The notes below the pieces were generated by a model, which saw nothing but the letters and a program-made list of their open reading frames with translations, had not been told where the DNA came from and ran no database searches. The translations under genes and the position numbers were made by a program. From Thelocarpon superellum (Eukaryota), in assembly GCA_026025795.1 (NCBI GenBank), contig JAPEUG010000174.1, forward strand, positions 1 through 33,966: a DNA stretch of 33,966 nt. The letters are read 5' to 3'. Positions within the stretch are counted from its first letter, which is position 1. Every line of letters begins with the position of its first letter. Shown one piece after another: positions 6,557 to 12,000 of the stretch.

Positions 6557-7921
6557 TTTGGGCTGACAAAGAGTGGGTGGGATGTGATGCCACGGGTCTT
6601 GACCTTCATATTTCTCTCTGCAAGAAATGCCGCTCGTGCCTTGGCCGCACTACTTGTATATGTTGGCGCATCGCTGTGACCGGCAAACGGAAATCGAGCA
6701 AGCATTGAACATAGAGCCAGCAAGACGCCCACGACGGTTCGGATAAAGATCTTGTGTGCACGATTTCCTGACATGAGGAGGGACTTTATGTTATGAGGGA
6801 TATGGTTATTGGCTCGGATGAGAGAGATCACTTACGGTAACGATAGGGAGAGAGAGGTTACGAGAACTCCACCCGACTTTATGGCACAGACGAATGTTTA
6901 TACTTGCACACGTACCAATGCACAGATTTTTGTGCAGGACGAAGTGTGGTAATCGCTGACGGAATAAGCTTGTTTGTGGAAGAGCGCGCCACCGGTCGAC
7001 GATGGGATCGATGGTGGGATCGATGATGCGGGCGATGACCCGGATTGGTCCGCCAGTCGATGGAGAATGTTGGAGCTGACATGCTCGTAGGGATAAACAG
7101 TTGCGCATGATACGGTTGGCCTTGAACCACGACCTACATTGTCGGGATGCACGCCACGTGCCTTCGGACCAATCCAAAAGGTTAGTGGCCCCAAACCAAT
7201 GCCGCAGCTGCTCACATCGCTCCCTAGAACACCCCAGCACAGCCCCAGTGTTCCCTGGGTCACGCGACGGGCCAACTAGGTTGTGTGAGCAAGGGGCGGC
7301 TTCGCGTACGCCGTAGATTGGGATGAGTAACGAATGTGTTGCAACGTTCGCACGTTTGGGTAGGAAGGCCAGCAGCGATAGGCCCACTGATTGACTGTAG
7401 AGGTCGGAGTCAAGGCCCGTGCCGCCTCGCTACTACGCTAGGTCACGTGCCGGGGTTGCGCAGCTATCGTCCCTATCAAAGTGGTCCATAGACGTTTAAC
7501 TATACTACTGCAATCCATAGGGGCCAACTGACAGTCACGTAACTTACAGCGTGACATGTTCAACCATCCCGCGATTAGCACGCGAACCGAAACCGCACGC
7601 TGATCGTTAACCCCACGTCCACTCCTCAACCTCTATTTGCCTTCTCTCTTCCCACCGATATCTGGAACCCGTGGTCTCGTGATCAGCTTCACGGCTGGCT
7701 CGTTTTCCTCGGAACCCGCACGTCAAGCCACCGTGAGACATCACCAGCGGCTGCCACAGCCTTCGCCTCGGTCTTCTTCGCCTTCACTCTCCACCTCGTC
7801 CCCTACCTGACCGACAAGCGGGCTACCCCACCCACCACACGCCGGCCTCACGCAGTGGACGTGCCCAACCCAGACTTGAGACCACCTGTGTTGGGAGATC
7901 CTACGCTCGTCGCTCGGCACG

Positions 7922-9004
7922 ATGAGTAGTCCACGGAGGAGGATCGAGACAGATGTGAGTCGCTTCACCCGGCTGAGGTCGACCGATGAGATAGAGAGCT
8001 GATCGTGCCGGTTCGTCCGGGACTGTAGGTGATGAAGTAGGTGTCCATGTCACGAACATCTGCGACCACTCTAATCGGCTGGTAGGATGTAGGGCCACCC
8101 TGCTGAGACGTCCTCACGACTGGAGCCGGGCAACGCGCGGTGACGACGTGACGCGATGTGCCGGCTGACGTGTGAGATAGGTTGATGAGCGACTACGAGG
8201 TGACACTGGTGAACGACAACAGTAAGTCCTGTGGCTCTGCACCCTGATGGAGCAGTCGCGACCAGCTGGCATCGCTTTGACTGACTTGACTACAGTGTAT
8301 GTGGTCCCCTTTCTCGCTGGCTCGCTCGACGGCCACCAGACTCCTCACACACCTCGATCCGATCCAGGCAAGAATTCTACGTTCGATTCAAGGGCCCGGA
8401 AGAGAGTAAGTGAGCCTGCAGCGAGCATCATTTCGGGACCTAGGGATTGATCAAACGCAGCGCCCTTTGCGGGTGGCCTCTGGAAGGTGCATGTGGAATT
8501 ACCGGATCAGTATCCCTACAAGAGCCCGAGCATCGGCTTCGTGAATCGAATCTTCCACCCCAACATCGACGAGCTGTTCGTGTCTCCATGACGGGCAAGC
8601 GGGGAGCGCCTCGAGCTGACGAGACGGGCTAGGTCTGGATCCGTGTGCCTCGATGTCATCAACCAAACGTGGTCGCCCATGTTTGACATGATCAACATCT
8701 TCGAGGTCTTTCTGCCCCAGCTCCTGCGGTACCCCAATCCTACCGACCCACTTAACGGCGAAGCGGCGGCGTTGTTGATGCGGGAACCCAAGGGCTACGA
8801 GGTCAAAGTGAAAGGTGAGGATGCCTGGGCCGCCGTCTCGAGCCGTACCTGACTCGACTTGTGAGCCAAGAGTACGTGTCCAAGTACGCCACCAAGGATG
8901 CCGCGGACGAGGCCGGCGCCGACAGCGAAGAGGAAGACGAGATGAGCTCGGTGGGATCCTTCGAATCGGGCGATGAGGAGCCAGCGGGGACGATGGAAGT
9001 GTAA
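7922..9004 (+). CDS. UBC8: Ubiquitin-conjugating enzyme E2, Ubc8/UBE2H. 9 exons: 7922-7954, 8029-8036, 8086-8088, 8181-8221, 8296, 8368-8405, 8461-8575, 8633-8814, 8871-9004; 184 aa
   Basis: Spliced product is [125 protein letters not shown]...[10 protein letters not shown] plus an acidic tail. It has the HPN motif and catalytic Cys in GSVCLD. Exon lengths sum to 555 nt. Confidence 0.95.
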
Positions 9005-12000
9005 GGAGATTTATCTGCGGACGTCGGGAGCACGGAGTTTGGTGGAGCTGCGATATTATCATGTGCAGCTGAACTTTCTGGATTTTCTCATTTGCTCTCT
9101 CTGCTCTCTTTGTGAGGCGCGGTAAGGATCATACAGATTGACTCGACATGGAGCAGCCGGAGAGATGAAGCGCGTGACATCCTTTTCTCTTGTTTCCTTC
9201 CCCGTCATCCATAATAGACATGTCTATCTCTCACGCGGGATTCAGCATCTCGAGATATCCGCCCTCCTTGCACCATGTATCTTTCACCCAGACGCGGGCT
9301 CGCCGCACATCAGAAAGGCACCCTTGAGGGGGCCACTCCCCCTTAGCTTGATCTTCCACACCCTTCGCCTCCCTACTCCTGCAAAGCCGCCACATGCGAA
9401 AGACCCTGCCGCCGATTCGCCGAAGGCGACGGAGCTCTCCACGTCTCAACGCCGATCCCATCAACCTAGATGTCCCGTAAGCATGGCACGGCGTGCCCGT
9501 CACCCGTGGGGTGGCTATCACGGCACGACCGGCAGGTGCGCGCATCATGCCAAAAGCAGCATCCTGACGGCGTGGCGAAACAGGACAGGGCAGGTAAAGA
9601 CAGGGCAGAGCAGCTGTCGACATGTCTGCGAGGCGGCGGCAGACCTCATGCGGCGCCACAAGCTCCCTCCCAGTCATTTGCCCGGGATGGACACCAATCC
9701 AGACATACCAATCTTGGTATGTCTGGGTTGCTATCCGTCCTCGTAGGTATCAGCACGTATGCCACGTAGAGGGTCAACGAGGCAAAAGAAGGGCCGGTGC
9801 CGGTGTTGGATGAGGCGGGGTGCCGGGTTCCGGGCGACGACTTCCACCGGCTTGCAGCGCCGAGGTTTTCCACACTGCATCTACTGAAAGTGCCATTCAC
9901 ATTCACATTTCAAGGTAGTTCCTTGCTCAGGTACAAGAACCATGTACAAATACATGTATGGCACGAAAGCAGGACATCTAGCTCCGCGTGTTGCATGTCA
10001 GCCGCGGTGGGTGGGACAACCCTGCCAGATGCATCGCTGCATGCACAGTGTGCTGCAGGGTGCATCGACACACCCACGTGCAGAGCATCTCATTTCGTTT
10101 CATAAAGGTCGCCGCACCTGATGGTATTTGAGGATATCGTAGTAGGTCGTACGGTAGAGGATGGGCTGTTGGGAGATTGAGACATACGCGCCTAGCATGG
10201 CCATGTCATTCCGCTGACGGTGGGAGGTCGGGCTGTTCGTCCGTCCTCTTCGTCTCTACTTGTGCTGCTGGAAGAAATGGTGGGCTAGAGGCCTGCGTAC
10301 GCCTTCGAACCACACCACTTCTGAGTATCTAGCTGCATACTCTGTGTACGAGCAGCATTCACTTGGATGGAAGCTTAAAGGCGTTGTGCGCCACGCACTG
10401 GAACTTAGGACATGAGAAGCTCGTCATTCATATGAGGCTGGAGTATTTGAGATCCCGTCATGCCGGTTGCTGGCCTGTGTATCGGGGTCCGGAAGTGCCA
10501 TCCGCATACTGTGCAAACGGCAGATTCCGGACCCACCGCGACAAAAGCACGGCAAAGGTAAGGCAACCAGGAGGCTCCCTCCACGGTTCGGTGCTCGTAG
10601 GTGGACCAATCGCCCGTCCCTTAGCGGGAGAAGGGGAGGAAATGGTGCATTCCACCGGACCCTGTCAGGCCACCGCCATCAGGCTCGCCTGGCCGCCCGT
10701 CGGGTTTCTCTCGGGTGTTTAAACACCTCTCCTGCACGATATCGGCCCGCGTGATTGGGCGGAAGAAGCATGCCCCATTTGATGAGCCCGCTCTGGAACC
10801 ATGAGCCGAAAGCCGGGAACCGAATCGAGTAGGGAATGACTCAGCCCCGCAGCGGCTTGGGTCGATCTGCTGCTGCTCGTCCCAGCGGCATGGTAGGTGT
10901 GGTGCGAGGACCGATACGTTCGACGATATTTGATCTTTAATTGTGCTCCACCCGCTGGACCCCAACTCTGACTCAACCCTTACCCGCCGGCAGCAAACCG
11001 GCTCCGCGTTGGGACGTAAGAGAAGGGGTTCTAATGCTGCGAATGTGCCGTCTGTTCTCGACCATACCAGGGGGGTGACGGTGGGCCTCGATCGCTCCGC
11101 CGGCTACATCCACGCCCCTGAGTGAACCGGCTAGTCTTTCGGAGTTTAAAACGATGGATGCTGAATCGGGTCGCCGAGTGGGCGCCGGCTCCGGTCCGGC
11201 CAGTGCCCTCCAGGACGCTTCGACCGTCGAACGGCTCAGAATTTCCATCGCTTGCACCCCCCAACCCCATCATCCAGGGATGTGGCCCCCCTTGCGCAGG
11301 TCATGTGGAAGCCCACTAAACTTAAGGCCTGTAGCCACCAATCTACCGACGGGCCCCTTCACGATCAATCATCTCTTGCACCTTGAAACCGCCACTGGTG
11401 TGACCGTCGATCTGTTTCCATGCGAGCGTGGCCAGGACCCAATCATGATGACCGGAGAGCGAGATTCGACGGGGTGCGACACGTTCCACAGCCTCCGCCA
11501 CCGCTTCTCCCGTGAGAAGTCACTTGCGCCGACGCTCCCACCCCCGGTCGACCCTCATTTTCGCCTGCGCATCTTCTAGCGCCAAAGCTGTCCGCGCGTG
11601 AGAATTCCCGTAGGTGCAGACGAGACGGATTCTTCGTGCATCAGTAGCCGCCCGTGCGCGACGTAGCCCACCCTCTCCGCGCCTTCGTCGCCGTGACTAA
11701 GGCCTCTAGGGCTCTTTAGCAGAGACCTAGACATGCTCCCTTCGGCTTCGGGCAGCTTCGAGAAGCCGTCGATCTCGCCAAAACACGAAGGCTTCGGGCC
11801 CACTTACTCCCCCGGGTGCCGGGTGGCAAGTTCGGGAAGGGCTCCGAAGGGCTAAGGCCGGATGCACGCGCTCTGCTCAAAGACCCACCGGCCTGCACGC
11901 GGGCCCACAAAGCTTCTGCCCATCCATGGGGTATGAGCAGCCTGTTGGCAGATCCGAACCCACCTACACCGCGTCGCCACTGCTTCTGCACCGACCGGCG

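Follow-up and report, generated by a model that had tools for sequence, protein, structure and literature searches.

The window analyzed here is a stretch of 33,966 nucleotides (nt) from Thelocarpon superellum (assembly GCA_026025795.1, contig JAPEUG010000174.1, forward strand). Between positions 7922 and 9004 it carries UBC8, a gene for a ubiquitin-conjugating enzyme (E2), and within that gene a T at position 8296 that stands alone between two complete introns. This T is very probably a genuine exon of one nucleotide, the middle letter of a methionine (Met) codon whose other two letters lie on the neighboring exons. Nine exons, joined by their coordinates (Table 1), give an open coding sequence of 555 nt and a predicted protein of 184 amino acids.

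The predicted protein is a Ubc8/UBE2H-type enzyme by its domain, its nearest relatives and its acidic tail. The two exons that encode the core of the domain score 47.4 bits (exon 7) and 50.8 bits (exon 8) against Pfam UQ_con (PF00179), for which the cut-off is 27. Over exon 8 the product shares 93-98% identity with fungal proteins that bear the names E2 8 or E2 H. In the acidic tail (8873-9001) the identity is 98% with E2 8 of the lichen-related ascomycete Thelocarpon impressellum and 88-93% with the Ubc8 of other lichen-associated fungi; the tail search of the protein collection returned no protein identical to the window's own. Over its full length the product is 87-92% identical to its relatives. 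It aligns without gaps over 184/184 residues, at 89% identity, with P0118 (from Logan contigs of about 1 kilobase, kb) and with P0008, and with one gap, at 92% identity, with P0071. The yeast Ubc8 is catalytically active and is a partner of the GID/CTLH ligase.

Toward its 5' end the gene is extremely fragmented, with successive exons of 33, 8, 3, 41, 1 and 38 nt; the earlier note on this DNA, which numbered the exon before the T as exon 4, agrees with this model. All eight introns start with GT and end with AG, and the six other than the pair around the T are 49-92 nt long.

Signals and reading frame around the T

Exon 4 ends ...AAC GAC AAC A at 8221, and exon 6 starts at 8368 with G CAA GAA TTC TAC. 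Intron 4 opens with GTAAGT at 8222, has an ACTGAC motif at 8280-8285 whose branch A (8284) lies 11 nt from the 3' end, and closes with CTACAG at 8295. Intron 5 opens with GTATGT at 8297, has a CTCAC motif at 8344-8348 whose A (8347) lies 20 nt from the 3' end, and closes with TCCAG at 8367. Each of the two introns flanking the T therefore has complete signals and a normal length, the branch motif of intron 5 being a variant of the consensus. The junction itself reads CAG-T-GTATGT (8293-8302), and its AG-T-GT core (8294-8298) is the only AG-N-GT within 8221-8368 at which both halves measure at least 40 nt. The first AG past the ACTGAC branch site is the one at 8294-8295, not the one at 8338-8339. 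Joined, the A at 8221, the T at 8296 and the G at 8368 spell the Met codon of the conserved ...NDN-M-QEF... segment.

The earlier note had proposed that this codon is assembled from three exons by way of a one-nucleotide exon. On re-reading 7300-9200 we found all of its letters and coordinates at 8221-8368 as it gave them, and the proposal is supported by the reading frame, by the gapless alignment, by the conservation of AG-T-GT in other loci and by a spliced contig from a relative.

Only the gene model that includes the T gives the open coding sequence. No single GT..AG intron yields A-T-G, because no T adjoins either exon edge; if Met is present in the mRNA, the T must therefore come from inside 8222-8367. 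Several other readings of this interval were rejected. A single intron at 8222-8367 shifts the frame and brings in early stop codons. Removal of intron 4 with retention of intron 5 also shifts the frame, in agreement with the frame-shifted stretches in two annotated proteins of relatives (P0083 and P0160). A stwintron, in which one intron is nested in another, was rejected because both introns are complete in the primary sequence and no nested GT..AG pair removes 8222-8367 in frame. A zero-length recursive splice site was rejected because a T stands between the AG and the GT and is required in the mRNA.

Orthologous loci, spliced contigs and annotations of relatives

Metagenome contigs were scanned with exon 8, which gave 364 confirmed stretches; the best 80 form the set of loci used here, and they were sorted by peptide anchors on either side of the site. 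The layout A-GT..AG-T-GT..AG-G is present in 48 of the 80. In 25 loci the ATG is contiguous, and a single locus, L001 (contig of 10.9 kb), carries the upstream intron alone, at 47 nt, with TG and the next exon directly after it (L001:2163-2215). L001 amounts to a natural variant with one intron deleted, the downstream one. The remaining six were left unclassified: L066 has AG-T-GT on a contig that breaks off on the upstream side, and five do not cover this part of the gene. In every two-intron locus (48/48) the middle base is T, exactly one split is possible, and the two halves measure 46-95 nt. The earlier note had suggested looking for a conserved AG-T-GT core in orthologous loci as a check, and the core is invariant in these 48.

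Identical sequences were collapsed for the analyses of composition, leaving 42 distinct sequences (41 from the two-intron metagenome loci plus the window). Their consensus at the junction is YAG-T-GTNNG: position -3 is C or T in 41/42, the AG, the T and the GT are invariant, and position +5 is G in 40/42. The intron interiors (2 x 20 nt) are only 28% alike, which is near random. When each sequence was shuffled 2000 times, the mean share of shuffles with the AG-T-GT split was 2.9%, and no single locus exceeded 7.3%, versus 42/42 observed; the split is more than chance. The lengths of the gap between exons 4 and 6 in two-intron loci include all three classes modulo 3, so this gap is not coding.

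The contiguous-ATG loci include several on genomic contigs (L025, 147 kb; L060, 229 kb; L069, 70 kb; L048; L062; L043; L047). Because these loci and L001 keep the T, it stayed coding where introns were lost. The pattern suggests several independent and precise losses of both introns. On the genomic contigs of this class other introns are still present further along, and one group of contiguous-ATG loci, which reads QEFYVIF, has no 5' introns at all.

Fully spliced contigs of 1.0-1.6 kb with an open frame were also present among the 25 contiguous-ATG loci (L010, L012, L013, L014, L035, L037, L049, L051, L053, L054, L057 and L063), and two of them could be paired with a genomic contig. L012 is a 1199-nt contig without any of the eight introns, and L023 is a genomic contig of 14 kb with the AG-T-GT layout. 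The two agree at 98.1% in a segment of 154 nt, at 100% in the 41-nt exon 4, then at 97.7%, 97.4% and 98.9% in the following exons, and at 99.2% in the 655 nt that comprise the last exon and the 3' sequence. The matched segments follow each other directly in L012; in L023, introns lie between them. At the joint, L012 has exon 4, one T and exon 6 (A-T-G), and L023 has A-GTAAGT...TTCAG-T-GTATGT...AATAG-G. The L012 protein is 98% identical to that of Hyaloscypha, and the pair is transcript-level evidence from the same or a sister fungal species. The second pair, L014 (spliced) and L017 (genomic, 38 kb, with two introns), has exons that are 93-100% identical, and each contig matches Tuber proteins at 123/123 residues. 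In the relatives represented by the pairs L012/L023 and L014/L017, the mature mRNA includes the T. Evidence for inclusion is direct for relatives, and for the window organism inclusion is predicted by homology.

Among proteins of relatives, the 120 best matches of an exon 8 search were inspected and, with a second search, 193 proteins were fetched. Both flanking motifs were found in 62 of the 193, with M directly between them in 38 and something else in 24 (the 24 disturbed proteins are counted together, not sorted by source). Proteins from contigs of about 1 kb are uninterrupted (P0071, which has 239 member sequences and a longest contig of 928 nt, P0051, P0118, P0024, P0054 and P0079). Annotations from long genomic contigs of named Pezizomycotina are disturbed between NDN and QEF by unrelated insertions, deletions or frame-shifted stretches. 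These come from Rutstroemia, Lachnellula, Hyaloscypha, Coniochaeta, Thozetella, Cladorrhinum, Zymoseptoria, Teratosphaeria, Coniosporium, Vermiconidia, Lasallia, Lignoscripta, Geoglossum, Sclerophora, Thelocarpon and Tuber indicum, to which the second search added Venturia, Hymenoscyphus, Tricladium, Imshaugia and others. The expectation that gene predictors would miss a one-nucleotide exon was thus correct, since many Pezizomycotina annotations are garbled exactly at this site. In four of the proteins (P0044, P0061, P0081 and P0083) the insertion starts MYV, MFV or MYM, the predicted translation if the intron 4 equivalent is removed and the T is read through into GTATGT or GTTYGT. An undisturbed M is annotated in Taphrina, Lipomyces, Dipodascopsis and two chytrids.

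Taxon labels of the loci were assigned by the best match among fungal proteins only and are rough apart from a few loci; the firm ones are Tuber (100%) and Hyaloscypha-like. With that limit, two-intron loci resemble Tuber and Wilcoxina/Trichophaea (Pezizomycetes), Hyaloscypha/Lachnellula (Leotiomycetes), Thozetella (Sordariomycetes), Coniosporium, Zymoseptoria/Teratosphaeria (Dothideomycetes) and lichen-forming lineages. Because of this spread, and of the garbled annotations in named genomes, the data point to an origin before the Pezizomycotina radiation, followed by several losses, a dating that is inferred.

Splicing, alternative readings and known systems

Introns 4 and 5 are two ordinary short introns of the U2 type, both equipped with a donor, a branch site and a YAG acceptor, and short fungal introns are presumably recognized across the intron (intron definition). 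Only 12 nt separate the branch A of intron 4 (8284) from the intron 5 donor (8297), so that a U2 complex at the former and a U1 complex at the latter would overlap. As two spliceosomes could hardly fit side by side, the introns are most likely removed in succession. Either order would leave intact signals, ...ACAT-GTATGT after removal of intron 4 and ...CTACAG-TGCAAG after removal of intron 5. Intron 4 would probably go first, because it is transcribed first and because upstream branch sites are nearer the consensus. If instead the outer sites were joined (the donor at 8222 and the acceptor at 8367), the T would be skipped, the frame would shift, and the transcript would be expected to be degraded.

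Several observations weigh against the T being an exon of the window gene. The branch motif of intron 5, CTCAC, departs from the consensus, and strict CTRAY motifs 5-45 nt before the 3' end were found in only 20/42 downstream introns versus 39/42 upstream introns of the distinct sequences; with the looser CTNAY the counts are 35/42 and 40/42. The weaker downstream CTRAY may bear on the order of splicing. The sole RNA run found for the window organism is a metatranscriptome with 6% of the words sampled; aligned to 7650-9250, its contigs supplied seven pieces, which show no joints and leave 8244-8621 uncovered. The L012/L023 comparison is 97-100% and not 100% identical, so the two may be different strains. 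The taxon labels of the metagenome loci rest on best protein matches. Finally, an in-frame, stop-free alternative acceptor exists at 8339.

Of the alternatives, the one that survives best grants that the T exon is real and proposes that its inclusion is partial or regulated, the skipped share being degraded and acting as a brake on Ubc8 output. We regard this as unlikely. Skipping of the T would lead to early stop codons; the intron 4 donor and the intron 5 acceptor are both good, and the 146-nt intron they would define is within the fungal range; downstream branch sites are also weaker. Against it, no skipped joint was seen among the 25 contiguous-ATG loci or the spliced contigs, although this is weak evidence, as assemblies drop rare forms.

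The second alternative is a single intron at 8222-8339: ten extra residues would replace Met, and the T at 8296 would be no more than intron sequence. The earlier note had pointed to this acceptor; it does exist and is in frame, as stated there, but it is not conserved in relatives. The path has no stops, gene predictors often choose similar paths in relatives, and the site corresponds to a turn between two strands of the UBC fold, where an insertion might be tolerated. Nevertheless, an in-frame, stop-free single-intron path is missing altogether from 22 of the 42 distinct sequences, and where such paths occur they would encode 2-33 residues of a length and sequence unrelated between loci. The uninterrupted proteins from the ~1-kb contigs, whose source was checked and is transcript-like (P0024, P0051, P0054, P0071, P0079 and P0118), and the spliced contigs, carry no insertion. 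Thelocarpon impressellum, the closest named relative, is annotated with 26 residues here (25 extra), the sequence of which is quite different. In addition, AG 8294-8295, not 8338-8339, comes first after the ACTGAC branch site. Since single-intron paths are absent in 22/42 and unrelated elsewhere, we take the acceptor at 8339 to be a chance feature of the window, and consider this reading very improbable.

The last alternative, that the gene is a decaying or non-functional copy in which the AG-T-GT core is a leftover no longer correctly spliced, is scarcely credible: the only matching RNA run has no contig piece over the T, but all eight introns have intact GT..AG ends, 184 open codons are 87-92% identical to relatives over their full length, and both core exons score above the Pfam UQ_con cut-off.

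A bolder view of the T itself holds that it has been constitutive since the Pezizomycotina ancestor, that exons of 8, 3, 41 and 1 nt make this the densest known micro-exon cluster, that the order of reactions is obligatory because two spliceosomes have no room at sites one base apart, and that splicing here, with skipped transcripts going to decay, is a conserved gate on the amount of Ubc8. We think it doubtful that all of this holds. If it did, the gate would act on the E2 enzyme of glucose-controlled protein degradation.

The UBC8 exon may be compared with two published single-nucleotide exons. That of Arabidopsis thaliana APC11 (Guo and Liu 2015, PMC4674806) resembles it in consisting of one base between two complete introns, in being needed for the frame and in having been missed in public annotation; its base is constitutive. 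APC11 is a plant gene, its base is an A, and the two rice paralogues lack the intron (PMC4674806), whereas the UBC8 base is a T within a Met codon. Unlike APC11, the UBC8 layout is present in 48/48 two-intron loci, from several fungal classes. The one-nucleotide exon of the Fusarium gene CYP621A was described as the second overall and the first fungal (Nelson and Syed 2026, PMC12940212). CYP621A and UBC8 both belong to Pezizomycotina fungi and share an AG-N-GT core, a total interval between the outer exons about twice the normal intron length, conservation among orthologues, support from reads of relatives and omission by predictors (PMC12940212). CYP621A, in that account, has a G (AGGGT) in a Gly codon, belongs to a rarely expressed accessory P450, and is confined to one genus with 20 orthologues. 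UBC8, unlike CYP621A, is a housekeeping E2 with a T, spreads far more widely, and has 8-nt and 3-nt micro-exons in the same gene. In its structure the UBC8 case is a single-nucleotide exon of the APC11/CYP621A type.

Stwintrons of the Pezizomycotina are a related class. Stwintrons (PMC5639578, PMC9024468) and the UBC8 pair both comprise two U2-type introns in a short stretch, and stwintrons are removed by consecutive reactions. In a stwintron, as those sources describe it, the internal intron splits the donor, branch or acceptor of the external one and no base is left (PMC5639578, PMC9024468), whereas each UBC8 intron is complete and one base is kept in the mRNA. The UBC8 pair is distinct from a stwintron because no splice signal is interrupted, which agrees with the earlier note's opinion that it is related to, but separate from, that class.

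Zero-length exons, or recursive sites, in long animal introns are AG-GT junctions spliced stepwise from 5' to 3' with nothing retained. They resemble the UBC8 site in having an acceptor next to a donor, but in UBC8 one coding base is kept and the introns measure about 70 nt.

Searches of a literature that excludes most subscription journals found no report of a UBC8 exon of one base. A one-base exon is the physical lower limit of exon size, and within the literature searched UBC8 would be the third nuclear case of the published type after APC11 and CYP621A, and by far the most widely conserved. The gene is a housekeeping gene, expressed enough to appear in metatranscriptomes. The loci form a natural series of many sequence backgrounds, including variants without one intron (L001) or without both, and they offer the prospect of genetically tractable species in which to follow how the spliceosome copes with an acceptor that a single base separates from the next donor. 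The value of the case lies in its depth of conservation, its series of variants and the systematic error in public gene models, where false insertions, deletions and frame shifts in UBC8 could be corrected with a simple rule.

Micro-exons, feature coordinates and minor observations

The 8-nt and 3-nt micro-exons are both required for ...VMKML.... In 31 distinct loci and in the window, exon 3 or its equivalent reads GAT, ATT or GCT. Seven loci have exons 2 and 3 merged into one 11-nt exon, and in four the two are merged with exon 1. Many public annotations are garbled at the 8-nt and 3-nt micro-exons as well.

Table 1. Coordinates of the UBC8 gene features in the window.
Feature	Position	Strand	Description
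Exon 1	7922..7954	+	ATG...GAT, 33 nt; peptide start agrees with relatives
Intron 1	7955..8028	+	GTGAGT..TGTAG, 74 nt
Exon 2, micro-exon GTGATGAA	8029..8036	+	8 nt; same exon in 31 distinct loci and the window
Intron 2	8037..8085	+	GTAGGT..CTAAT..GGTAG, 49 nt
Exon 3, micro-exon GAT	8086..8088	+	3 nt; kept in 31 distinct loci and the window
Intron 3	8089..8180	+	GTAGGG..GCTGAC..GATAG, 92 nt
Exon 4	8181..8221	+	41 nt; last base is the A of the Met codon
Intron 4 (upstream of the T)	8222..8295	+	GTAAGT..ACTGAC..CTACAG, 74 nt
Exon 5, single T	8296..8296	+	middle base of the Met codon (very probable)
Intron 5 (downstream of the T)	8297..8367	+	GTATGT..CTCAC..TCCAG, 71 nt
Exon 6	8368..8405	+	38 nt; first base is the G of the Met codon
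Intron 6	8406..8460	+	55 nt
Exon 7	8461..8575	+	UBC core, HPN motif; Pfam UQ_con E 1.9e-12
Intron 7	8576..8632	+	57 nt
Exon 8	8633..8814	+	UBC core, cysteine in SGSVCLDV; Pfam UQ_con E 1.7e-13
Intron 8	8815..8870	+	56 nt
Exon 9	8871..9004	+	acidic tail; stop TAA at 9002-9004
AG of the alternative in-frame acceptor, inside intron 5	8338..8339	+	would add 10 residues

One 209-nt metatranscriptome contig from a wood-decay sample matches 8001-8209 unspliced with five differences. It covers introns 2 and 3, the 3-nt exon between them and part of exon 4, and ends before the T site; it may be carried-over DNA or pre-mRNA of a close relative.

On the minus strand an open frame of 209 codons (8499-9128) lies antisense to the 3' half of UBC8. 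We take it to be a chance feature of G+C-rich DNA.

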